DNA of 10,801 bases from a virus (IMGVR_UViG_2529292726_000024:1-10801); one strand, 5' to 3'; shown: positions 1 through 10,801, counted from the first letter of the stretch. The notes: generated from the sequence alone by a model not told the origin. A program made the numbers and translations.

Positions 1-223
1 GTAGCATCTCCAGCAGAGTTGTTGGTGTCAGAGCCGGCCTCTCTTTCAACAGAGGAACAAGCATGCTGTCCCACACAGCTTCCAGAGGATCTTTGCGTGT
101 GCGCCAGTGCCGAACACTGTTTTTTGCCCACTCTCCTTTTTCGATCCGACGACCAGAACGGACTGAGATACCAGCCTTCATGGCCGAGATATGCTGAGTT
201 ATACCTTTCTTACGCTGAGTCAT
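1..223 (-). CDS. hypothetical protein, N-terminal fragment (ORF continues beyond window start)
   Basis: Minus-strand ATG at 223-221 opens a frame (MTQRKKGITQHISAMKAGISVRSGRRIEKGEW...) that stays open to base 1; in-frame TAA upstream at 295-293 bounds the start. Absent from the ORF track because it has no stop in the window. Basic N-terminus, no clear Shine-Dalgarno. Function not recognised. Confidence 0.3.
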   Translation of the reverse strand, partial: MTQRKKGITQHISAMKAGISVRSGRRIEKGEWAKNSVRHWRTRKDPLEAVWDSMLVPLLKERPALTPTTLLEML

Positions 224-364
224 ATAGTAACTGACCTGAGAAGTATTGAGCGTCACGCCATTTCCTGTTGGATCATGTAAATGACACTCAGGTTACAAAA
301 CCGGCCAGAATAATCGGCGCCAGGCGGACTGAGTTATTGTCGTCTCATACTCCACGCTTATTTT

Positions 365-1705
365 TTAGGTAACGTCTAAGATTCGCTCAATGAAGCGCAT
401 TTGTTCGAGGTTTTGTTTAACGCGAATGCTGATCCCTCCCTGCTGGTTACGTGAACCAGCAAAGTAGAGACGAGCCTCTCCTTTCGCTTCTTCTTCTTCG
501 GTTTTGTTGATCGTTATTACCAGGTCAGCAATACGTACTTTTTCGATGTTGTCGGCAGCGTGCATCATTGTGGCAACTTCTGACGCGCCACCTTCACGGT
601 TTGTCTGCGATGCCGTGATCCCAGCAACGTTATGCTTGTCATAAAGAGCACGTAAATCGGTGTAGATACTACGAATGTTGGCGCGATCATCACGAAGGTC
701 ATAACTGGCACGCATCAAATCTGCGTAGTCGACAACAACCATGTCAGGCACCATGCCGTTGGCTTTCATGCTGTTAAGCACACGGTCCAGATCTGCCGGT
801 GACATACTTCCTGACGGACGCTCAACAACCCACAAACTACCAATACCCTTCGTAGCTCCCAACTCTGCCAACTTGCGATGAACTTCATCGCGCCGTTCCA
901 CCAACTTGGACATTTCCGTCTCCGACAATCTTGCATCAAAACGGTCGGATAAAATGGTGGTGTGAACCTCCAGCGAGAGATACAGAACATTGTAGCCAGC
1001 AAGTGTTGCGTTTATGGAAAACTCACCCATTGCGGTCGATTTACCGGATTTAGCGAACCCCATGAAGAGCACCATTTCGCGCTTTGCCCAGCCTTTTTGG
1101 TACAGCACCCTATCGAGAAGAGGGAGTCCAGTTGTAATACTGTTTGGTACATACTCCTCTGAAGCCTCATATTCACGCGCTTTCAATCGCTCACTTGCGG
1201 AGGTGTAGTAGTCATAGATTCCGGTCGCTTCGTTCGATCCAATCTGCTGAACCTTGGCCATGATTGCCATCGCCCCCTGAAAGTCGCCTTTCTCTTTCAG
1301 TTCAGCAGCCTTAATCAGAGCATCATCAAACGCTACACTTTTTGCGAAGGTTGATACCTGGTCAACCATGTACGAGGTATCGGACAATTTTTCTGCAAGA
1401 ATGCGCTTAAACGCAGCAACAACATCGGCGAATAGTTCCTCACGGATAGTCTTATCGCGTTTCGCACGCTTAAGCATATCCAGAATTGCAGATGAAGAGG
1501 GCGCGCTCTTGTACATACGGTAATAGCCCGAAACCATATTAACCAATATGGCATTGGCCGCATTGGCAAATTGGCTAGGCACAACCAGATCTCCCGCACG
1601 AGTAAGAAACTCGTGATCACGACAAAAATATGCCGTCAGTCTGTTCTGGAAATCTTCATCAAACTCTTCGGACAGCCCGCGTCCTGTATGGCAAAGTTCG
1701 GTCAT
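365..1705 (-). CDS. DnaB-family (SF4, RecA-fold) replicative DNA helicase
   Basis: 446-aa ORF; Walker A GFAKSGKST; DnaB-like motifs VVVDYADLM (Walker B/H2) and ITASQTNRE (H3); SD AAGGAA 5 nt upstream of ATG at 1705-1703. Family assignment from motifs seen in the translation. Confidence 0.82.
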   Translation of the reverse strand: MTELCHTGRGLSEEFDEDFQNRLTAYFCRDHEFLTRAGDLVVPSQFANAANAILVNMVSGYYRMYKSAPSSSAILDMLKRAKRDKTIREELFADVVAAFKRILAEKLSDTSYMVDQVSTFAKSVAFDDALIKAAELKEKGDFQGAMAIMAKVQQIGSNEATGIYDYYTSASERLKAREYEASEEYVPNSITTGLPLLDRVLYQKGWAKREMVLFMGFAKSGKSTAMGEFSINATLAGYNVLYLSLEVHTTILSDRFDARLSETEMSKLVERRDEVHRKLAELGATKGIGSLWVVERPSGSMSPADLDRVLNSMKANGMVPDMVVVDYADLMRASYDLRDDRANIRSIYTDLRALYDKHNVAGITASQTNREGGASEVATMMHAADNIEKVRIADLVITINKTEEEEAKGEARLYFAGSRNQQGGISIRVKQNLEQMRFIERILDVT

Positions 1706-1748
1706 GTGCTTTCCTTTGTTTTTTAAACAAATTGTTTTCTAGTATTAG

Positions 1749-2489
1749 TTAATTAGATAGGGGATCAATAAACCGCCGTGCTTCTTCCAGTTCTTCTGGA
1801 AAGTGGGCGTAAATAAGGCGCTCTGGAACGATTTCCATTAGCCAGATAGCGGAGAAAATTGCGCGTATGCGCTTGCTGCGAGGGATGGTGCGCAAACGCT
1901 CCAGAATCCACTCAAAATAGCTTTCCTGAATCGGGTTGAACTGCATGTCTCCCATATGCTTAAAGCTAACCAGAGAGTCATCCAGACGGGTTGTTGCGCG
2001 TCTGGCTAATTTCTCTTCAAATATCTCAATCAGTTCTGGCTGCCATAAATGCTGTGGGCGCGGCAGCTTGTCCCACAGCCGTCGTGCAGCTGCGGAAAGA
2101 ACGGTGGAGATAAAGTAGTCGTATGAGCAGCAATAGCGATCCGCAAACTGGCGTGCTTTCCATAGCGACGTTTTATTGGCAGTCGACAACTCCTGATAAG
2201 GCAGACGTTTTAACCCGGTGGTGAACGGAGCTGTTTCAAAGTGTTCGCGACCGTGCGTCAGCATGATATTTGAGTACTGACGTTTGTATGCCTCCGTAAA
2301 AAGACAGGTGGCCATGAGAGGATGCATGTCGCGGTAATCAAACCACTTCGTCTCGAAGAGTTCAGCCTCGTCTTTACAGCGCGACAAACCAATGTTTTCA
2401 GCGACCCACTTGTCCATAACAGCGGTATTCCACTCTGTCATGAAGTCGTACTGGTCGTTGTCGATGGTATCGAAAAAGATTTGGCTCAT
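1749..2489 (-). CDS. hypothetical protein, immediately upstream of the helicase gene (possible replication initiator or helicase loader by position only)
   Basis: Long ORF, 43-nt gap to helicase start, same strand. First ATG at 2489-2487 has SD AGGTGA 5 nt upstream; the track start at 2498 is a GTG. Aromatic-rich, no motif recognised. Confidence 0.6.
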   Translation of the reverse strand: MSQIFFDTIDNDQYDFMTEWNTAVMDKWVAENIGLSRCKDEAELFETKWFDYRDMHPLMATCLFTEAYKRQYSNIMLTHGREHFETAPFTTGLKRLPYQELSTANKTSLWKARQFADRYCCSYDYFISTVLSAAARRLWDKLPRPQHLWQPELIEIFEEKLARRATTRLDDSLVSFKHMGDMQFNPIQESYFEWILERLRTIPRSKRIRAIFSAIWLMEIVPERLIYAHFPEELEEARRFIDPLSN

Positions 2490-2498
2490 GTGGCTCAC

Positions 2499-2591
2499 CT
2501 GGTGGGTAGTTACTTACTTATCACAATGAGCGGATGATAGCGACTGGTGGCAGTTTTTGGAAGTGAAAACGGAAGGGAGTTGTTCTGGTGG
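2499..2591. repeat. three direct CTGGTGG heptamer repeats in the divergent control region (candidate iterons/operators)
   Basis: CTGGTGG at 2499-2505, 2544-2550 and 2585-2591 (spacing 45 and 41 bp); the first overlaps the SD of the 246-aa gene on the opposite strand. None is preceded by G, so none is a canonical Chi octamer. Confidence 0.4.
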
Positions 2592-2714
2592 TGTCTTTTA
2601 AAAGACCTGCTTCCGTATATATTTAATAAGTTACTTATTATTTATATACAGAAACAGGCTCCTAATGGATACCAAGAACAACATAATTTGACTCCAACCC
2701 CAGATGCTATGTCA

Positions 2715-2748
2715 TTGACAGATTTATCAAGGGAGATCATGTTAGAAT
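2715..2748 (+). promoter_or_regulatory. candidate sigma70-type promoter for the 352-aa ORF
   Basis: TTGACA at 2715-2720 and extended -10-like TGtTAGAAT at 2740-2748; spacing 22 bp is longer than optimal, so this is weak evidence. Confidence 0.25.
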
Positions 2749-2778
2749 CAGTGTTTTAGCCTCGTGGATATTGTCACC

Positions 2779-3837
2779 ATGCGCATGAATAGACTTCCAG
2801 GATATGGCCTTCCCGAACTGGCTTTTTGGCCTCAGCCTAAATATGAACGGAATAAATGGTCGATGTTCTGTCTGAAACTCCGTAATGATGGAACCCTTGC
2901 TTGGTATCGGCGATATGTTGATCGTGGTATGCCAAACCACGCTTTTGATGACGACTACGATAACTATCCTGAAGCAAGAAAAGCGGCATTAGAGCTGAAT
3001 AAAAACGTGAGCTTTGACATTGAAAAACTTCCTCTATCTATGTTTCAAAAGAAGTCATTGCGTTTGAAAGTTGACAAAGCACTCAAAGCCAAATCACGTC
3101 TCATGGATGAAGAGCATATAATGCTCAACGAAGCAATTAAGGCACACGCCAACGATCCGCGAGTGACATTAAATGAGTTAATAATTAACCCAGATTACGA
3201 AACTTTGCGTCAACCCCTTTTTGACGTGCTAAGCGAGATGCCTTACTTACATTTTGTTTTTCTTCCCAAATTCCAAGTTTCACTTCAACTCGTTGCTCCT
3301 AACACTTGGGAATGTTCATATAACAACAAAGCTAAGACAGCGAAGATCTGCTACCAAGAACGCATAGCCAGAGGTTTTGGTTTATCAGGTGCTGCACATT
3401 GGGGAAAAACAAAAGCGACTATTCGCTCAATGCTTCTGCCGCGTGCTAACCGGTTACTGCAACTCGCCAGCGTAAAAAGAATGCTGGATGAAGCTCTCAG
3501 GAATGGGCAAAAGGTACTGGTTGTTGGCAACTTTGTTTTCTGGTTTGAGGACAAAAATCAGGTAGGTTGGAGTGTTAAAGTTGCTAGCGAAAGCGAAACC
3601 ACCTCAAGAGGCAATACGCTCTGGAAAGAAGGAACTATCATTTCAAAAAATCACGGTCGAATTGTCGTGCTGCCGTATACAAAAGAAAACGGTAAACATG
3701 TAAAAGGTTATACCAAGAATGCCCCTAACGACGGCAACGCAATTCCGAGACATAAGGATGAGTATGTCGAGTTGCCCTTTGAAATTTTGGATGGTGACTT
3801 GATGTTCAGTCTGTTCGGTGAGCTTAACTACGAATAG
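2779..3837 (+). CDS. hypothetical protein (352 aa from ATG 2779; 357 aa if the GTG at 2764 is used), orphan accessory gene of unknown function
   Basis: Uninterrupted ORF on the strand opposite to both flanking modules; terminator-like hairpin downstream; AT-richer than neighbours by hand count (3001-3060 about 32% GC versus about 45% for 1381-1440 in the helicase). No Walker, HTH, TM or nuclease motif recognised. Start codon uncertain; no strong SD. Confidence 0.6.
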   Translation: MRMNRLPGYGLPELAFWPQPKYERNKWSMFCLKLRNDGTLAWYRRYVDRGMPNHAFDDDYDNYPEARKAALELNKNVSFDIEKLPLSMFQKKSLRLKVDKALKAKSRLMDEEHIMLNEAIKAHANDPRVTLNELIINPDYETLRQPLFDVLSEMPYLHFVFLPKFQVSLQLVAPNTWECSYNNKAKTAKICYQERIARGFGLSGAAHWGKTKATIRSMLLPRANRLLQLASVKRMLDEALRNGQKVLVVGNFVFWFEDKNQVGWSVKVASESETTSRGNTLWKEGTIISKNHGRIVVLPYTKENGKHVKGYTKNAPNDGNAIPRHKDEYVELPFEILDGDLMFSLFGELNYE

Positions 3838-3854
3838 CTTTCATAGAACGAAAT

Positions 3855-3892
3855 ATTTCTAAGGCTGTCCAATGCAGACCAGCCTTAGAGAT
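3855..3892. terminator. bidirectional terminator-like hairpin between convergent genes
   Basis: Stem 3855-3867 pairs with 3880-3892 (core CTAAGGCTG / CAGCCTTAG, 9 perfect bp, extendable to 13 with one wobble), 12-nt loop; T-rich flank on both strands. Lies between the stop at 3835-3837 (+) and the stop at 3900-3898 (-). Confidence 0.45.
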
Positions 3893-3897
3893 TTATA

Positions 3898-4257
3898 TCA
3901 ACCTTTCTTCATTAACTCGCGTTTAATTTCATCGGTACGCATCGTGACATCGGCAGCGGTGATCGCCTCATTCAATTTCACGATGTCCTCGATTTCCTGC
4001 GGTGACTTCTCTGCCAGATGGAAAATGGCTGCTCGAATCACGTCAGAACGAGTGAACTTCTCGAAGCGAGGGATGAACTTCATCATCTCCAGCAGTTCGA
4101 AGTATTCGTCCTCCAGTGACATTGTGCGGCTTTTAATTTTCTCTTTGCCACGAGTCGGGCGTCCCTGTGGTCTGACTGGTTGGCGCAAAGGAGTTGTGTT
4201 CTTAGCCGGTGCATCAGGCTCTTTGCGCTTTGCTAGGTCACCCATTTTCATGGACAT
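3898..4257 (-). CDS. small partition-locus partner protein (ParG/ParB-like centromere-binding protein candidate)
   Basis: 119-aa ORF whose ATG (4257-4255) overlaps the ParA stop (4259-4257) as TAATG; basic, Pro-rich N-terminal tail and short C-terminal domain, typical of small partner proteins of ParF-type ATPases. Assignment is by context, not motif. Confidence 0.5.
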   Translation of the reverse strand: MSMKMGDLAKRKEPDAPAKNTTPLRQPVRPQGRPTRGKEKIKSRTMSLEDEYFELLEMMKFIPRFEKFTRSDVIRAAIFHLAEKSPQEIEDIVKLNEAITAADVTMRTDEIKRELMKKG

Positions 4258-4925
4258 TATTCTTCTTCCTCCAGACTCAACAGATAATCTACAAATTCTT
4301 CAAACTCGGCTTCCGCCTTTTTGTCGCGCTCGCTACCGGTCATTTCAAAGATAGAACGACCAGACTCTTCCGCATCATCATAGACGTTGCGGTTATATAG
4401 ATTGACTGGCGCAGACTCGATTCCAAACGTCTCAACAATCTCTTTAGCCGCCAGAATGCGAGACACTTGTGATGGCAAAGCCGGGCACTGGTTCATGACC
4501 GCGCGGACCTTCACTTTATCGTTTACATTGCGAACATTGTCGATAATAGGATCGATGTCACGTAAAGATTTCAAATCACGACGCTTAGGACGCAGCGGGA
4601 TAATGATAACGTCAGCCATCAGCATCGCTTGTCGCTGAATTTCGGAGTCGAAGCCACCAGCATCTACCACTACAAACTCAGCTCTACCCTGAAGCGATTT
4701 TAGGTGCTTAATGATGTCATCCTGAACGTATGCAAAAGGAATCAGCTCAAGGTCTTCGTTCTGTCGACGGTCTTCACACCAGCTCGTTGTCGTGCGCTGA
4801 ATATCTATATCGGTAATATAAACCTTCTTCTTCTTTTTGACTTTCAGGCAAACGGCAATTTGCTGGGCAACGGTGGATTTGCCAGGCCCGCCCTTTGTGC
4901 CGCCAACCACAAAGATCTTGGTCAT
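4257..4925 (-). CDS. ParA/ParF-family partition ATPase (deviant Walker A)
   Basis: 222 aa; deviant Walker A GGTKGGPGKST near the N-terminus; acidic C-terminus; small size typical of type Ib ParA. Confidence 0.8.
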   Translation of the reverse strand: MTKIFVVGGTKGGPGKSTVAQQIAVCLKVKKKKKVYITDIDIQRTTTSWCEDRRQNEDLELIPFAYVQDDIIKHLKSLQGRAEFVVVDAGGFDSEIQRQAMLMADVIIIPLRPKRRDLKSLRDIDPIIDNVRNVNDKVKVRAVMNQCPALPSQVSRILAAKEIVETFGIESAPVNLYNRNVYDDAEESGRSIFEMTGSERDKKAEAEFEEFVDYLLSLEEEE

Positions 4926-4960
4926 TGGAGAGTTCCCTTTGCGTATATAATTATCGTCTG

Positions 4961-4973
4961 AAACAACTTGTTT
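4961..4973. promoter_or_regulatory. palindrome upstream of parA-like gene (candidate operator/centromere element)
   Basis: AAACAA-c-TTGTTT at 4961-4973, about 36 bp upstream of the parA ATG. Additional inverted repeat GTACGG-N7-CCGTAC at 5105-5123 in the same intergenic region. Confidence 0.25.
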
Positions 4974-5128
4974 TCTTATATGTGATATAGCCTAAATGCC
5001 TACGGCTGCGGTGTAAAGGTTAAATGGTAGGTTGTGATTAACAATTGGCAAACATAGCTTGTATTTGTCTGTTGAAAAAAGTAACAATGACCTCTATATT
5101 ACAAGTACGGTGATATGCCGTACACAAT

Positions 5129-5188
5129 TTGATAATGCACACGTAATGGGCTATAGCCTTTTAAAGTAATTTTTGAGTCGAAAACTCA
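5129..5188 (+). promoter_or_regulatory. candidate promoter and operator of the toxin-antitoxin operon
   Basis: TTGATA (5129-5134), 17-bp spacer, TATAGC (5152-5157); downstream inverted repeat TGAGT-cgaaa-ACTCA at 5174-5188, positioned like an autoregulatory operator. Confidence 0.3.
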
Positions 5189-5243
5189 GTTTGAACAGAG
5201 GAGATTGATGGCCTTCCTACATCACGGCCATCAGGAGGAATAC

Positions 5244-5513
5244 ATGTCAGCACTAAAAAAGCAGCGCATCGATTTGAGATTAACCGATGACGATAAAAGC
5301 ATCATCGAGGAAGCTGCCGCAATGTCTAACCAGAGCATTACTCAGTTTATGGTTAGCAGTGCATCTGAACGTGCCGTGAAAGTTATAGAGCAACACCGTA
5401 GACTAGTTCTGAATGAAGAATCCTGGAATCTGGTTATGGACGCTATAAGCAATCCTCCGGCACCGAACGACAAGCTGAAACGAGCTGCTGATCGTCTGAA
5501 AAGCATGGAGTAG
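5244..5513 (+). CDS. type II antitoxin, DUF1778 (RHH) family, AtaR/TacA/KacA-like
   Basis: MSALKKQRIDLRLTDDDKS... matches the conserved N-terminus of DUF1778 antitoxins as I remember them. SD AGGAGG 5 nt upstream of ATG 5244; an alternative in-frame ATG at 5208 also has an SD. Stop is 7 nt before the toxin start. Confidence 0.8.
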   Translation: MSALKKQRIDLRLTDDDKSIIEEAAAMSNQSITQFMVSSASERAVKVIEQHRRLVLNEESWNLVMDAISNPPAPNDKLKRAADRLKSME

Positions 5514-5520
5514 TTTACTC

Positions 5521-6042
5521 GTGGATAATATAAAGATAGAAATTTTCTCTGGAGAGAAAGATTATGATTTGAATGGTTTTGATTGCGGTGAAGAATCACT
5601 AAATGCCTTTTTAACCAACCACTTAAAAAGGCAGCATGAGGGAAAAATTCTTCGCGCTTATGTGCTTTGCACGAAAGAAGGCAGACCAAAAGTGTTAGGG
5701 TATTACACTTTGTCAGGTAGCTGCTTTGAAAAGGAGTCCTTACCTTCAAGAAGCCAGCAAAAGAAGGTACCTTATCGGAATGTTCCAAGTGTTACTTTGG
5801 GTAGGCTGGCTTTGGACAAGTCCCTTCAAGGTCAAGGATTTGGCTCAATGCTTGTAACACATGCAATGCGCGTTGTGTACAATGCATCTCTTGCTGTAGG
5901 CATTCATGGACTTTTCGTTGAGGCGTTAAATGACAAAGCCAAGGCGTTTTATAAAAGTTTAGACTTTATCCAGCTGGTTGGTAACAACGAGCGTTCTTTG
6001 TTCTATCCTACAAAATCTATCGAAAAATTGTTCGAAGAATAA
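5521..6042 (+). CDS. GNAT-family N-acetyltransferase toxin (AtaT/TacT/ItaT-like, aminoacyl-tRNA acetylating)
   Basis: 173 aa, GTG start; acetyl-CoA-binding motif LQGQGFGSML; conserved FDCGEE and VGIHGLFVEALN segments remembered from AtaT-family toxins; directly downstream of the DUF1778 antitoxin. Confidence 0.8.
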   Translation: MDNIKIEIFSGEKDYDLNGFDCGEESLNAFLTNHLKRQHEGKILRAYVLCTKEGRPKVLGYYTLSGSCFEKESLPSRSQQKKVPYRNVPSVTLGRLALDKSLQGQGFGSMLVTHAMRVVYNASLAVGIHGLFVEALNDKAKAFYKSLDFIQLVGNNERSLFYPTKSIEKLFEE

Positions 6043-6047
6043 TGTAC

Positions 6048-6065
6048 TCCCCTCAAGTGAGGGGA
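6048..6065 (-). terminator. terminator-like hairpin between the converging TA operon and the minus-strand membrane cassette
   Basis: TCCCCTCA (6048-6055) pairs with TGAGGGGA (6058-6065); on the minus strand it follows the stop at 6076-6074 and precedes a U-rich stretch; the plus-strand flank is not U-rich. Confidence 0.35.
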
Positions 6066-6073
6066 ACTTCGCA

Positions 6074-6289
6074 TCACCAACCGCAAACTCTCTCTCCCAT
6101 CGTATTGTGAAAAAGGATTTGGCGTTCGGTTTCTTCGGTCATCACATCATTATTGCTGATATAGATAGGCCCAGCTCCATCGCAGAACAATACGCTGGCG
6201 GTTTGTGGTTTAATGACGCACCCACTTATCATACAACTCACGATGAACGGCAGAAGCATCTTTCTGACGTATTTTATTGCTCGTCTCAT
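6074..6289 (-). CDS. candidate o-spanin-like outer-membrane lipoprotein, overlapping the 3-prime end of the upstream gene in the +1 frame
   Basis: Lipoprotein signal MRRAIKYVRKMLLPFIVSCMISGC with lipobox ISGC (alternative start at ATG 6259). Overlaps the 6210-6461 gene by 80 nt in another frame, the classic overlapped Rz/Rz1 arrangement. Mature part is not proline-rich, so the assignment is tentative. Confidence 0.4.
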   Translation of the reverse strand: MRRAIKYVRKMLLPFIVSCMISGCVIKPQTASVLFCDGAGPIYISNNDVMTEETERQILFHNTMGERVCGW

Positions 6290-6461
6290 TCACCACTTCC
6301 ACTGTGCTTTGAAGTCGTTTTCTGTCTTCCTGTTTTGCCTTCTCTTCCATTGCTCGTCGCGCCGCATTCCCGCCCATCGTGTAAGCGCCGACAAGAACGA
6401 AAAGAACGGCAGCCAGCGTAATCAAAGCAACTTTTAGCTTTGTCATCAGGCTGCCTAGCAT
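6210..6461 (-). CDS. candidate i-spanin-like protein (N-terminal TM helix, charged periplasmic helix)
   Basis: ATG at 6461-6459 with SD AAGGGA upstream; MLGSLMTKLKVALITLAAVLFVLVGAYT is a single N-terminal TM, followed by a charged helical region (AARRAMEEKAKQEDRKRLQ...). Short (83 aa) for an Rz-like protein. Confidence 0.42.
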   Translation of the reverse strand: MLGSLMTKLKVALITLAAVLFVLVGAYTMGGNAARRAMEEKAKQEDRKRLQSTVEVVNETSNKIRQKDASAVHRELYDKWVRH

Positions 6462-6462
6462 A

Positions 6463-7155
6463 TTAGACCATCCCTTTCTGGTGTTTTCTTCCCTGCGACC
6501 AGGCAATGAATCCTGCCACAACAATAGTGGCAATACCGAAGATGATGCGTACTGTATCCCCGCTAGAGATATGACCTTGTGCTTTATCCATAGCAGCGGA
6601 AACCTGCGGCATAACATCGGCCAGCTGCGCCAGACCAATACCTGCTGTAACAGTTGCGCCTGCGGTTTCTTTAGTTACAGGAACAGCCTTCACGGTTTTC
6701 ACCGGCTTAACAACGCCAGCTCGACGCAGACCTTCCTCAATAACTTCTACCGCATACCAGGTGTTCAGCGTTTTTAGCGGGCCTCGGCCATTCTCGTGGC
6801 GAATGATTGCCTCAACCAAAGGTCGAAGGATGTCGTAATCATGCAGATCGATGATCATGTCTGCGGTTACACCAACGGCTTTAGACACCTCATTAATGTA
6901 GGCGTCAGTATTGTTTTCATTCGGCGGTGCCCAACGTTCAATAACTTCACGAATGGTATCGATACTTGAGCCGTCTTTTGCGCGACGTTTGTCGTGGTAG
7001 GTAATTAGAGTCACCGCCAGCGCACGAATCCCCCAAACAGGGTCTTTAAACGTGCAAAAGCGCGGTTCGTCTGGATTCGCAACCAGACCTTGCCACGGTG
7101 ATCCTTTATCAAGATTACCGGGGTTATTATTACGAATGCCTCTCGGAGTCTTCAT
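6463..7155 (-). CDS. tail-anchored membrane protein (C-terminal TM); endolysin-like only by its position in the cassette, unverified
   Basis: 230 aa from ATG 7155 (SD AGGAG 7 nt upstream; the track start at 7182 is a GTG). N-terminal soluble domain with RNNNPGNL, C-terminal TM IIFGIATIVVAGFIAW. No catalytic motif of a known muralytic family recognised. Confidence 0.4.
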   Translation of the reverse strand: MKTPRGIRNNNPGNLDKGSPWQGLVANPDEPRFCTFKDPVWGIRALAVTLITYHDKRRAKDGSSIDTIREVIERWAPPNENNTDAYINEVSKAVGVTADMIIDLHDYDILRPLVEAIIRHENGRGPLKTLNTWYAVEVIEEGLRRAGVVKPVKTVKAVPVTKETAGATVTAGIGLAQLADVMPQVSAAMDKAQGHISSGDTVRIIFGIATIVVAGFIAWSQGRKHQKGMV

Positions 7156-7168
7156 CCTTGATCTCCTG

Positions 7169-7492
7169 TTATTGCAGTCCACTTTTTACGCCATACGCGG
7201 CTAACCCCAAAAGCAGTGCGGTAATAATGAACGACGTTATTTTAGAAACAATGCCGCCAAAGAACCCACTTGAGATGGAATCTAACCGGTTAAGGAGTTT
7301 GTCCAGATTGGAGTGTTGAATACTATGTTGCGCCGGGGTCATATCACCAAAGTAGGTTTTCAGCTGATCATTGACCTCCTGGCCAATTTCTTCACGTAGC
7401 TCTTTACCTAATTTGCCAACAACCTCCCGAGCAACGATCGCGGCAATACGCTCAACTTGCTCTGTTGTAACGCCCGCCATCTCGTTCGACAT
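7169..7492 (-). CDS. small tail-anchored membrane protein (holin-like by position, unverified)
   Basis: ATG at 7492 has a strong SD GGAGG 5 nt upstream (alternative ATG at 7504 lacks one). About 85-aa charged N-terminal region then a single C-terminal TM ITSFIITALLLGLAAYGV. Stop is 13 nt before the next gene. Confidence 0.4.
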   Translation of the reverse strand: MSNEMAGVTTEQVERIAAIVAREVVGKLGKELREEIGQEVNDQLKTYFGDMTPAQHSIQHSNLDKLLNRLDSISSGFFGGIVSKITSFIITALLLGLAAYGVKSGLQ

Positions 7493-7573
7493 GTTTTCCT
7501 CCATGAAAAGTCAAATCGGGATGGCGGATTTATATCACATTTCACCCTTTTGTTGTAGGTGTGTACTTACCTA

Positions 7574-7807
7574 TCATTCAGCATTGCAACCGATTGATGA
7601 GAAAGCACCTACTCCAACCCATCGCCAGTTATAGATGCTACCCGCTTTGTATAAGGTATAGTCGTTCACTTTTTTAACAGCATATATGGGTATGACTGTC
7701 TCCTGTCCACCAATGATAGCTTCACCATAACATATAGGTGTCGGCAATTTCTGGCAGCCAGTAAGAGAGAGAACAACAGCTATTGTTAGAAATAATCTTT
7801 TCATCAT
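7574..7807 (-). CDS. small lipoprotein, 77 aa (candidate Cor-like superinfection-exclusion lipoprotein)
   Basis: Signal peptide MMKRLFLTIAVVLSLTGC with lipobox LTGC; starts 4 nt after the stop of the 202-aa gene; size and position after the tail-fibre genes recall Cor-type lipoproteins of lambdoid/N15-like phages, but sequence similarity is not verified. Confidence 0.55.
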   Translation of the reverse strand: MMKRLFLTIAVVLSLTGCQKLPTPICYGEAIIGGQETVIPIYAVKKVNDYTLYKAGSIYNWRWVGVGAFSSIGCNAE

Positions 7808-7814
7808 TTACTCA

Positions 7815-8423
7815 TCAGTTATACAGATTTCTATTTATTACCGGTACTCTGCCATTTACGCTAAAACTATGGCCGCCATTAAGTTGGTTTACGAATATCG
7901 AGCTAACAGTATTTCCATATGCCGCATATCCATAAACCATTGTCATGGCTCCGCCCGGTACTGGAACAGCGAACACATTCGCATATGTTGGGATTATCGC
8001 TGGAGGGTAATCAAAAACATGCCCTCCAGAGCTGTTCCACTCCGTATTATTAAGAAAGGTAAATGAAAGTGGGATATTTGCCGTATTATAGATTTCCTCC
8101 CCTTGTGCATTGAAAAAACTCATGCCCCAAGTTTCTTTTTTGGCTATACCTTTCGAAAATACGTATATCGTGGCACTAGAGTCGCTACCCTGACCTCCGA
8201 AACTGTAAATCACCTGGTTGTTACGCACTATTCTGTTGGCTATTAATGAAACAGCTTTCGAATAGGCAACAAAAATAATCGGTGAACGATCTGGAGATAT
8301 TTTGGTGTTAAACTCTGTTCCGCCGGACAAAGAAACAACCTGCTTTCTCTGAAAAACGATAGGAGACAAAGAAGGAGACATCCAGACCTTCCCGTCAGAT
8401 CGATATATCTTGCTTCCGTACAT
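7815..8423 (-). CDS. hypothetical protein, 202 aa, Gly/Ser/Asn/Tyr-rich, probably beta-rich
   Basis: ATG at 8423-8421 overlaps the stop of the upstream gene as TAATG (translational coupling). No TM segment or catalytic motif seen. Confidence 0.55.
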   Translation of the reverse strand: MYGSKIYRSDGKVWMSPSLSPIVFQRKQVVSLSGGTEFNTKISPDRSPIIFVAYSKAVSLIANRIVRNNQVIYSFGGQGSDSSATIYVFSKGIAKKETWGMSFFNAQGEEIYNTANIPLSFTFLNNTEWNSSGGHVFDYPPAIIPTYANVFAVPVPGGAMTMVYGYAAYGNTVSSIFVNQLNGGHSFSVNGRVPVINRNLYN

Positions 8424-8677
8424 TATTTTTGAAAAACCAATATGTTTAAATTACCACTAGCTCCAGACCACGAAATGGTATTTCCAGAAACCGTAAGACT
8501 TGTGTACTTTCCATTGGTTACGTCCATTATGTAATAGTCGATTCCCAATCCCGCCTCAACCTCATATGTTCTACTTCCTGAACCAGAGGGAGTAAAATAA
8601 TCGAGGTAATAAACAGGGGCCAACGCATTGACCATCTCCTGTCTTGATGGCGACCAAACCTGTGCACCATAGCTCAT
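8423..8677 (-). CDS. hypothetical protein, 84 aa
   Basis: ATG at 8677 with SD AAGGA 7 nt upstream; first gene after the tail-fibre stop; coupled to the 202-aa gene. No motif recognised. Confidence 0.5.
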   Translation of the reverse strand: MSYGAQVWSPSRQEMVNALAPVYYLDYFTPSGSGSRTYEVEAGLGIDYYIMDVTNGKYTSLTVSGNTISWSGASGNLNILVFQK

Positions 8678-8702
8678 AAATATATCCTTATACTTTTAAG
8701 CA

Positions 8703-8725
8703 GGGGCTGGTTTAGCTCCAGCCCC
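8703..8725. other. GC-rich hairpin between the tail-fibre gene and the downstream cassette
   Basis: GGGGCTGG (8703-8710) pairs with CCAGCCCC (8718-8725), 7-nt loop. U-rich flank only on the plus strand, so it is not a convincing terminator for the minus-strand operon; possibly an RNA-stability or processing element. Confidence 0.3.
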
Positions 8726-8737
8726 GATTGAAGTTGT

Positions 8738-10534
8738 TTATTCTTTAGGTGAATTTAACTTCGTTTCAAGCTCCTCAACCCTTTTGGTCAATTGCTGAAT
8801 ATGATGAATGAGTGGTACAACCAAACGCTCATACATCACTCCTTCAGCGACCATACCATTTGAGGAAATACCTTCTGGAGAATCATTATTTGTTGGTTCA
8901 CGCCAATGGACATATTGCGGGGCAATCTCACCAACCTCTTCAGCAATAAGGCCGTAATACCCCCAATCCTTTCGGTCACCTCGACAAATTGAACGATACC
9001 AAACAGGTCTTAATGACAAAAGTTCATCAGCATATCGATCTTGTAATGTTTCAATATCCTTTTTATAGCGCCTTGAAGACGTTGAACGCCAAACTGTATT
9101 GATACCTGGGTTTGGATCAATGTACATATTGGCACCGCTAGTAGTTGTGCCAATATCCCATATAGCAAACCCTCCACTACCGCCTGATTTGACAACCAGT
9201 GTTTCAGCAACAATATCCAGGTTGCCACTATAGCCTGTCAGTGATGATCTGCTTGCATAGGAACTTAGAAGGTTTGCTACCTCTGTTTTCGTGTAAGCAT
9301 TAAGGTTAGCCGCAGTCAAAGTTATATCGGCAGAGCCATCAAACGCCACACCAGCAATTTTCCTTGCTGTCTGCAATTTTGTGGCGGTTGCGGCATTACC
9401 AGTAGTGTTCTGATTACCAGTGGCATTCACACCAGGAATGGAGTCCCTTGATGTATATACCTGCGCCCACGCTGACCATGCCGCAACTGTGTAATCTCTT
9501 CGGGAGCGAATGAAAACCGGCGCATGTGCACCGCTCGTACCACTCCAGCCAATAAGCAACTCGCCCTCACCAGCAGCACTCGCACCTTTCATGTGCAATA
9601 CGTTGCCATACGTGGTCGGGTAGCTATTGTTGTACACCTCATACATTTGAATGCCAGCAGTGCCTTGAGTAGAGCCGCTTAACGCCGTAACTCGGCCACG
9701 AGATACCAATGTATTAATATTGATATCGCCTGAACCATCAAACTTAACACCATTGATGTTTCTCGCTGTTTGCAACTTCGTAGCTGTTGAAGCATTACCG
9801 TTCAAACTACCATTTACGCCACCAGTCACATTTAGTCCATTACCAATTGATACAGCACCGCTGGTATTATTAATTGTAATAGGTCGCAAACCGTTCCATG
9901 AACCTAATGTGTCTCCTGATGCTGTTAGCAGGAAATATGTGTTCGCCCCATCATTACGGATAAAGAACCCAAAGTTACCGTAAGCAATGCGGAAACCATT
10001 TGCATATTTTGAAACGATCTCACCAGAAGACGTTAACCCTCCAGATAATGTGCCACCTGAAAGCGGTAATGCTCCTACATCAGAAGCTGTTGGTTTGTTT
10101 CTAGTGTTATACGCTCTGCGCCATCCAGGTGAATAACTTGAGCCATTAGACACATAGATAAACTCCGCATTAGTGAGTGCACCAGAGACATTTGTCGTAG
10201 TGGCCGTTGTTATTCGAATGGTGTAATTGTTGGTATTATTGCTGAATACTTCTATCACAGCACCCGCCAGTGGAATAATGCCACAACCAGTTTCACTGTC
10301 TGGTATGGATGCACTATTCGCATACGCCCATGCACAACGAGCGATCCATGCTTTCGTACTGAATGCCCCGTTATTTTGCAACAAAGTAACTAACTGGGCT
10401 GTCGTTATTGCCCCTCCATTACTTCCTGTAGTTAACCAACCAGTAGGAGATGCCGGGCAACCTATATTTGCTGGCGACAAGGCAATATTTGCCGAGCCGT
10501 CAAACGACACCCCATTGATAGTACGCGCAGTCTG
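8738..10534 (-). pseudogene. tail fibre protein with C-terminal S74 intramolecular-chaperone domain, 5-prime truncated by IS2 insertion
   Basis: Three copies of the tail-fibre repeat LQTAR-INGV-FDGS; C-terminal domain with SSRRYKKDI (S74 auto-cleavage consensus) and ...VPLIHHIQQLTKRVEELETKL. The reading frame runs into the IS2 left end at 10535, so the first ~45 codons of the 643-aa track ORF derive from IS2. Confidence 0.8.
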
Positions 10535-10801
10535 TAGACTGCCCCCCTGAATCTCCAGACAACCAGTATCACTTAAATAAGTGATAGTCTTAATACTAGT
10601 TTTTAGACTAGTCATTGGAGAACAGATGATTGATGTCTTAGGGCCGGAGAAACGCAGACGGCGTACCACACAGGAAAAGATCGCAATTGTTCAGCAGAGC
10701 TTTGAACCGGGGATGACGGTCTCCCTCGTTGCCCGGCAACATGGTGTAGCAGCCAGCCAGTTATTTCTCTGGCGTAAGCAATACCAGGAAGGAAGTCTTA
10801 C
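10535..10801 (+). mobile_element. IS2 (IS3 family), left end, partial (runs off window)
   Basis: Sequence from TAGACTG at 10535 through the insC start matches the IS2 left end as I remember it (near-identical, one or two mismatches in the terminal repeat). Boundary good to about 3 bp. Confidence 0.85.
10626..10801 (+). CDS. insC: IS2 transposase OrfA (InsC), N-terminal part
   Basis: [58 protein letters not shown] is the recognised InsC N-terminus; SD GGAG upstream; ORF continues beyond the window. Confidence 0.85.

Follow-up and report, generated by a model that had tools for sequence, protein, structure and literature searches.

[quoted passage not shown] The closest described relatives of the gene pair considered here are AtaR-AtaT of E. 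coli O157:H7 (PDB 6AJM, 6GTS, 7CHD), encoded on the chromosome between livJ and panM, and KacA-KacT of Klebsiella pneumoniae (PDB 5XUN, 5ZGN). In AtaT, mutations at G108 (acetyl-CoA binding), Y144 (catalytic), Y85, R95, F30 and L27 lower toxicity, as do changes at H34/R37/R40, S76, S78 and the lysines of helix alpha-3 (PMC7595197). The 27-bp KacAT operator is a pseudo-palindrome lying across the transcription start; R8 and R12 of KacA are essential for binding to it, the substitution D10A weakens binding, and the system is regulated by conditional cooperativity (PMC6698736). GNAT toxins from four Klebsiella clades arrest growth, each being countered by its cognate RHH antitoxin, and cross-neutralisation between chromosomal and plasmid GNAT-RHH systems has been shown in that genus (PMC9431474). 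Among phage-plasmids, the SSU5 supercommunity has TA systems in its shell genome (PMC7969092), and a pair of Escherichia phage Cyrano has been published as a 'KacT acetyltransferase-type toxin' and a 'putative antitoxin' that are expressed in lysogeny (PMC9928086). The type II system phd-doc is carried by the plasmid prophage of P1, where it is described as an addiction system that regulates itself through conditional cooperativity (PMC6698736, PMC7969092).

Nucleotide comparison of the window (the whole stretch of 10,801 nt that was analysed) showed that nt 1-10534 are 99.99% identical to E. coli plasmid p503046_111 (CP025888.1). The segment nt 350-10534 is 96-99.7% identical to many non-mobilizable E. 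coli plasmids of ~110 kb and to phage Cyrano, and ~82% identical to Salmonella phage SSU5. Judged by its gene content (Table 1) and these matches, the window is from an SSU5-like E. coli phage-plasmid. Its left end (nt 1-349) lies inside an IS21-like element, ISEc10, that has entered between the genes for helicase and primase, and its right end (nt 10535-10801) is an IS2 that interrupts a tail fibre gene and is missing from CP025888.1. Relative to Cyrano, both insertions are additional. The window's copy of the element has probably lost its function as a phage and is kept solely as a plasmid, and if this is so its partition and addiction functions would weigh more. The small gene that overlaps parA is labelled 'RelE/ParE putative toxin' in the Cyrano annotation. 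That label looks doubtful; a Pfam search of the gene product gave no match, and the position of the gene suggests a centromere-binding partner of ParA.

Table 1. Features of the window in positional order, with the basis of each call.
Feature	Position (nt)	Strand	Basis or remark
DnaB-like helicase gene	365-1705	minus	Gene content, fits SSU5-like phage-plasmid
Small parA partner gene, parB-like	3898-4257	minus	Overlaps parA stop codon
parA, partition ATPase (backbone context)	4257-4925	minus	NCBIfam ParA_partition, E 1.9e-33; phrog_164 ParA-like
Exchangeable 1,057-bp cassette: promoter, operator, leader, two genes, hairpin	5033-6089		blastn versus pERB3f3 and SSU5
Sigma-70-type promoter, TTGAAA (5072-5077), 17-nt spacer, TATATT (5095-5100)	5072-5100	+	Consensus scan, 10/12
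Predicted AtaR/KacA-type operator GTACGGTGATATGCCGTAC, GTACGG-N7-CCGTAC (6-bp arms, 7-bp spacer)	5105-5123		Palindrome conserved across family
Long leader with three conserved palindromes	5124-5243	+	Alignment to 89% variant
Leader palindrome 1, GGGCTATAGCC	5148-5158	+	Invariant in 89% variant
Leader palindrome 2, TGAGT-N5-ACTCA (TTTGAGTCGAAAACTCAGTTT)	5174-5188	+	Invariant in 89% variant
Leader palindrome 3, TGATGGCC-N12-GGCCATCA	5206-5233	+	Abuts Shine-Dalgarno sequence; spacer N12/13 across variants
Antitoxin gene, 89 aa, RHH N-terminus and toxin-binding C-terminus (DUF1778/TacA1)	5244-5513	+	Pfam PF08681
Toxin gene (GNAT), 173 aa, GTG start, predicted aminoacyl-tRNA N-acetyltransferase	5521-6042	+	PDB and Pfam matches
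GC-rich hairpin, 9 pairs (5 G-C), between the convergent TA operon and spanin gene	6046-6067		Terminator-like on minus strand
Rz1-like outer-membrane spanin gene (context)	6074-6289	minus	phrog_1275 Rz-like spanin, E 2.3e-24; last codons at right cassette junction
Spanin, endolysin, holin and tail fibre genes	beyond the TA pair	minus	Gene content

The initial annotation had placed a GNAT/DUF1778 pair of the AtaT-AtaR kind beside the partition genes and divergent from parA, and both statements were borne out. The pair consists of two plus-strand ORFs with Pfam and PDB matches and 69-80% identity to the latter; antitoxin precedes toxin with a 7-nt gap (5513 to 5521), and 318 bp separate the start codons of the antitoxin gene and parA. 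Gene order and sizes match those of AtaR-AtaT, although the window pair is carried by a phage-plasmid and its DNA identity to the chromosomal ataRT genes is merely ~65%. From these protein similarities, the pair is a member of the AtaRT/KacAT clade of GNAT-RHH type II systems. It is an ordinary member of its family and already known: RefSeq annotates the two genes as a GNAT family N-acetyltransferase and a DUF1778/TacA-family antitoxin, and the published Cyrano pair (CYRAN_27/CYRAN_26; pLF82, OV696614) is another copy of this cassette in the corresponding slot, with 97% DNA identity overall, an identical antitoxin (100%) and a toxin 95.4% identical to that of the window.

The antitoxin matches TacA1/DUF1778 (E 5.7e-26) over 79 of the 80 profile positions, and a PDB search returned KacA (E 6.6e-42) and AtaR (E 1.3e-40), to which it is 80% and 76% identical, respectively, without gaps. 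KacA is thus its closest solved relative, and the KacA residues that read DNA (R8, D10 and R12) are all present in the alignment. Comparison favours the ATG at nt 5244, which is preceded by the Shine‒Dalgarno sequence AGGAGG (nt 5233-5238), as the best antitoxin start, and similarity to AtaR and KacA starts from the Met of this codon. In the Cyrano annotation, the gene (306 nt) was started at an upstream ATG that corresponds to nt 5208 of the window. A longer product of 101-102 aa, beginning at TTG 5205 or ATG 5208, was ruled out, as the frame is not conserved: in a cassette variant with 89% identity, a 1-nt indel breaks the frame upstream of nt 5244, and the GAGGAG Shine‒Dalgarno sequence before ATG 5208 is lost. 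The start codon is now backed by comparison, which is useful for annotation.

Of the promoter matches in the region, TTGAAA-17-TATATT is the best; both its hexamers are invariant in the 89% variant. An equivalent promoter lies upstream of the operator in the seven other plasmid and phage-plasmid loci compared, i.e., the 89% cassette variant, SSU5-like elements of Enterobacter and Citrobacter, a Klebsiella virulence plasmid, and IncF plasmids of E. coli and Salmonella. The palindrome GTACGGTGATATGCCGTAC starts 4 nt past the −10 hexamer of the window promoter, at the expected transcription start (predicted at about nt 5106-5108); it is unique within the window and was matched in none of 200 shuffles. 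The ataR gene of O157:H7 is preceded by GTACGGTGACATACCGTAC, which has the same GTACGG...CCGTAC arms at the same 7-bp spacing. A single copy of GTACGG-N7-CCGTAC was present in every one of nine loci (8/8 plasmid or phage-plasmid GNAT-RHH loci and O157 ataRT), with a −10 hexamer ~4 nt upstream of it (TATATT, TATAGT or TATTAT in the seven loci listed above), and neither of two relatives that lack a TA pair contains it. The arms do not change between cassette variants; the spacer does. This placement agrees with the published description of the KacAT operator as spanning the transcription start. GTACGG-N7-CCGTAC at nt 5105-5123 is accordingly presented as the predicted operator of the family.

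Two other upstream elements had been pointed out earlier, and both are physically there. The promoter-like element is TTGATA-17-TATAGC (nt 5129-5157), but its −10 hexamer is without T at position 6, it was not called by the scan and it sits downstream of the predicted operator; it is not favoured as the promoter, and TTGAAA-17-TATATT is the better candidate. The palindrome TGAGT-N5-ACTCA was found where described, once in the window (0.02 chance matches expected). As an operator it was ruled out, since the family-wide palindrome is the one 51 nt further upstream; TGAGT-N5-ACTCA is not conserved outside this cassette lineage, and its position is in the transcribed leader.

That leader is a point of difference from the chromosomal system. 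The operator and the antitoxin start are 120 nt apart, compared to ~19 nt in chromosomal ataRT, and the same distance is 76-222 nt in the plasmid and phage-plasmid GNAT-RHH loci (e.g., L009:2367-2501 and L013:2289-2510). Substitutions relative to the 89% variant cluster between the three palindromes, which stand out as invariant islands, and all three are predicted to form hairpins in the centroid folds of both variants. The conservation of the palindromes represents two effective lineages and is suggestive. The folding energy of the leader is within the ordinary range (z −0.2 and −1.05), and an Rfam search of it returned no RNA family, the sole hit being a chance miRNA match (E 0.38). A palindrome-bearing leader of this length, missing from chromosomal ataRT, suggests regulation beyond the AtaRT/KacAT model. 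Inspection by eye of other lineages showed that a hairpin often lies directly 5' of the Shine‒Dalgarno sequence, and the Enterobacter leader carries about seven tandem CTGAAAA heptamers, a unit similar to CGAAAACTCA of the window. Also seen was a 14-nt direct repeat, ATGTGATATAGCCT and ATGGGCTATAGCCT, at nt 4980-4993 in the backbone upstream of parA and at nt 5146-5159 in the cassette leader, which may be due to chance or be a common protein-binding site.

The toxin gene begins with GTG at nt 5521, 10 nt downstream of GGAG (nt 5507-5510). Pfam returned generic GNAT families for its product (E ~1e-6, above the gathering scores), and an NCBIfam search of the protein gave no specific model above cut-off. 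In the PDB search, AtaT (6GTS, 6AJM; E 8e-79) and KacT (5ZGN; E 3.7e-74) matched end to end and ungapped, with 69% identity to AtaT over 172 residues. The acetyl-CoA loop QGQGFG (residues 103-108), which includes G108, fits the GNAT motif Q/R-x-x-G-x-G/A, and the catalytic tyrosine (Y144 in AtaT, Y145 in KacT) is Y144 in the window toxin and present in 10/10 aligned homologs. The initial annotation had made its reading depend on the catalytic residues of the family, and these are all present: the toxin retains G108, Y144, Y85, R95, F30, L27, H34 and R37 of AtaT, as well as S76, S78, K81, K82, P84, L136 and K165. The residues for the tRNA acceptor end are identical in all seven cases (F30, H34, R37, K81, K82, Y85 and R95). 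By alignment, then, the catalytic machinery is intact. Six tRNA-contact or pocket positions differ from AtaT (R40E, N41G, R71K, K77R, K79Q and A26S), which makes AtaT an unsafe guide to the tRNA target. AtaT reportedly acts on Met-tRNAfMet and on the Gly, Trp, Tyr and Phe tRNAs, a range that the six substitutions may have shifted.

Both genes are under purifying selection, as estimated between cassette variants, with dN/dS values of 0.04-0.05 (antitoxin) and 0.06-0.15 (toxin). In Cyrano lysogens of E. coli LF82, the KacT-type toxin and the antitoxin were found at 35x and 60x the local prophage background, respectively, and the element is maintained at ~5.5 copies per cell (PMC9928086). These data bear on whether the GNAT protein could instead be a non-toxic acetyltransferase, for example with a protein or a small molecule as its substrate, or whether the pair could be a decaying remnant without toxin activity. 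Such a reading could appeal to the generic domain that Pfam alone sees, to the absence of a specific NCBIfam model above cut-off, and to AtaT being reported to acetylate the protein EspB at K206 (PMC7957018). It is very improbable given the full-length ungapped identity to AtaT with tRNA-binding and catalytic residues kept, the translationally adjacent cognate DUF1778 antitoxin with its predicted operator intact, the low dN/dS of the toxin gene, and the transcription of the Cyrano copy in lysogens.

The limits of the unit were defined by blastn comparison with pERB3f3 and SSU5, which lack the TA pair. Homology to these elements ends at nt 5032 of the window and is back at nt 6090-6092. The left junction follows nt 5032 (...GGTTAAATGGTAGGT), and the right junction (6089/6090) is located within the final codons of the gene for the Rz1-like spanin. 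The extent first given for the pair, nt 5129-6042, holds both genes, but the functional unit is nt 5033-6089, with the promoter and predicted operator upstream of nt 5129. The hairpin downstream of the toxin gene also falls within cassette-specific DNA. At nt 6074-6092, the spanin is seen to end in ...GERVCGW; in relatives with other slot contents, it has 4-9 extra C-terminal residues.

Alignment of related elements indicates that the slot between parA and the lysis genes is variable. The close cassette variants examined (100%, 97% and 89%) are all in the same slot. The SSU5-like elements of Enterobacter and Citrobacter have other GNAT-RHH alleles there, with toxins 62-63% and antitoxins 87-88% identical to those of the window. 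In pERB3f3 (L002:5253-6373) and SSU5 (L004:5930-7086; SSU5_032/031), the slot is occupied by a minus-strand two-gene module, phrog_3307 and phrog_2594, the function of which is unknown to PHROG. Its products are ~233-250 aa and 127-140 aa in length, the pERB3f3 and SSU5 versions are 33-37% identical, and Pfam and PADLOC searches of the module gave no match. This module and the GNAT-RHH cassette are mutually exclusive, and it could be an uncharacterised TA or defence pair. Recombination has probably also acted within the cassette. Between the window and Cyrano, the antitoxin gene is identical and one base differs in the upstream promoter and leader region (from nt 5025), while the toxin gene differs at 26 sites (dS 0.16), which points to a breakpoint between the two genes.

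Such turnover could reflect competition between incompatible phage-plasmids, in which the resident's allele kills cells after the resident is displaced by a relative without the matching antitoxin, a process that would select for exchange of alleles. The patchy carriage of the cassette fits this, as ~760 plasmids in PLSDB have this parA region and 143 have at least 80% of the cassette query, as do the at least three distinct GNAT-RHH lineages and the unrelated two-gene module found at the same junctions, and the recombination just described. The pattern is, however, equally compatible with ordinary recombination at a permissive site, and competition of this kind would refine an addiction role rather than form a distinct mechanism. 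As the main explanation we consider it improbable.

The variable slot also raises the question of defence, which the initial annotation had offered beside plasmid addiction. The pair might be mainly an abortive infection or exclusion device, in which an invading phage or a shut-off of host transcription depletes a labile antitoxin and the toxin halts translation. Variable accessory slots of prophages are typical places for defence cargo, and the different alleles in the Enterobacter and Citrobacter slot are what an arms race predicts. On the K. pneumoniae plasmid pKP35_vir (L010:1-1573), a GNAT-RHH pair with 70% identity lies ~0.9 kb from SAVED-domain and nucleotidyltransferase genes that look like CBASS components in defence-island-like surroundings. 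Nevertheless, neither protein matched a family among the PADLOC-DB 2.0.0 models at E ≤ 0.01, a literature search found no demonstrated anti-phage activity of any GNAT-RHH pair, and in the cassette lineage both genes are under strong purifying selection rather than the diversifying kind. Defence as the main role is therefore possible but unlikely.

Very probably, the locus is a self-contained, autoregulated type II TA cassette of the AtaRT/KacAT family that occupies the partition‒lysis slot of an SSU5-like phage-plasmid and most likely acts through post-segregational growth arrest. Transcription would start from the TTGAAA-17-TATATT promoter, and an antitoxin dimer would read GTACGG-N7-CCGTAC through its N-terminal RHH domain (R8, D10, R12). 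By analogy with AtaRT and KacAT, a toxin-antitoxin4-toxin heterohexamer would be the tightest repressor and excess toxin would de-repress the operon, while the C-terminus of the antitoxin would wrap around the toxin and block dimerisation as well as the acetyl-CoA site. Free toxin, again as in those systems, would dimerise, bind acetyl-CoA at QGQGFG and, with Y144 as the catalytic residue, acetylate the alpha-amino group of aminoacyl-tRNAs, which would stop translation. Loss of the low-copy plasmid prophage would then lead to growth arrest, stabilising the element by the same logic as phd-doc of P1. The likeness to phd-doc is functional only; the proteins and their chemistry are unrelated, Doc being a Fic-family kinase and not a GNAT acetyltransferase.

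Post-segregational growth arrest is the most economical role and the most likely one, and the position of the cassette next to parA and the parB-like gene was counted in favour of addiction; we infer toxicity, the tRNAs hit, antitoxin lability and addiction alike. Its contribution may vary with the genetic background. The annotation of Cyrano includes other TA pairs, such as HicAB (PMC9928086), and because this relative has them the window pair may be redundant for stability. Of the complete E. coli genomes, ~30% have a chromosomal ataRT, and two GNAT-RHH copies were counted in at least 71 genomes. If a chromosomal antitoxin cross-neutralises the toxin, addiction would be weaker in hosts bearing ataRT; cross-neutralisation as described in Klebsiella (PMC9431474) could modulate addiction here.

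A further, rather speculative proposal that we regard as improbable is that the long leader is a second regulatory layer and the parA‒lysis slot a dedicated exchange site, in which GNAT-RHH alleles and the phrog_3307 and phrog_2594 module are functional equivalents. If true, the leader would couple production of the antitoxin to the phage-plasmid's state, by way of RNA stability, control of translation or binding of a second protein to the DNA.

For a family as thoroughly solved as this one, another member has little import beyond correct annotation. What is useful is that the promoter and predicted operator have been placed and that the pair is recognised as a discrete, exchangeable cassette whose junctions are fixed, in enterobacterial phage-plasmids of a very common group. 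The cassette provides an easy handle on what TA pairs do for plasmid prophages, be it stability, competition between elements or defence.
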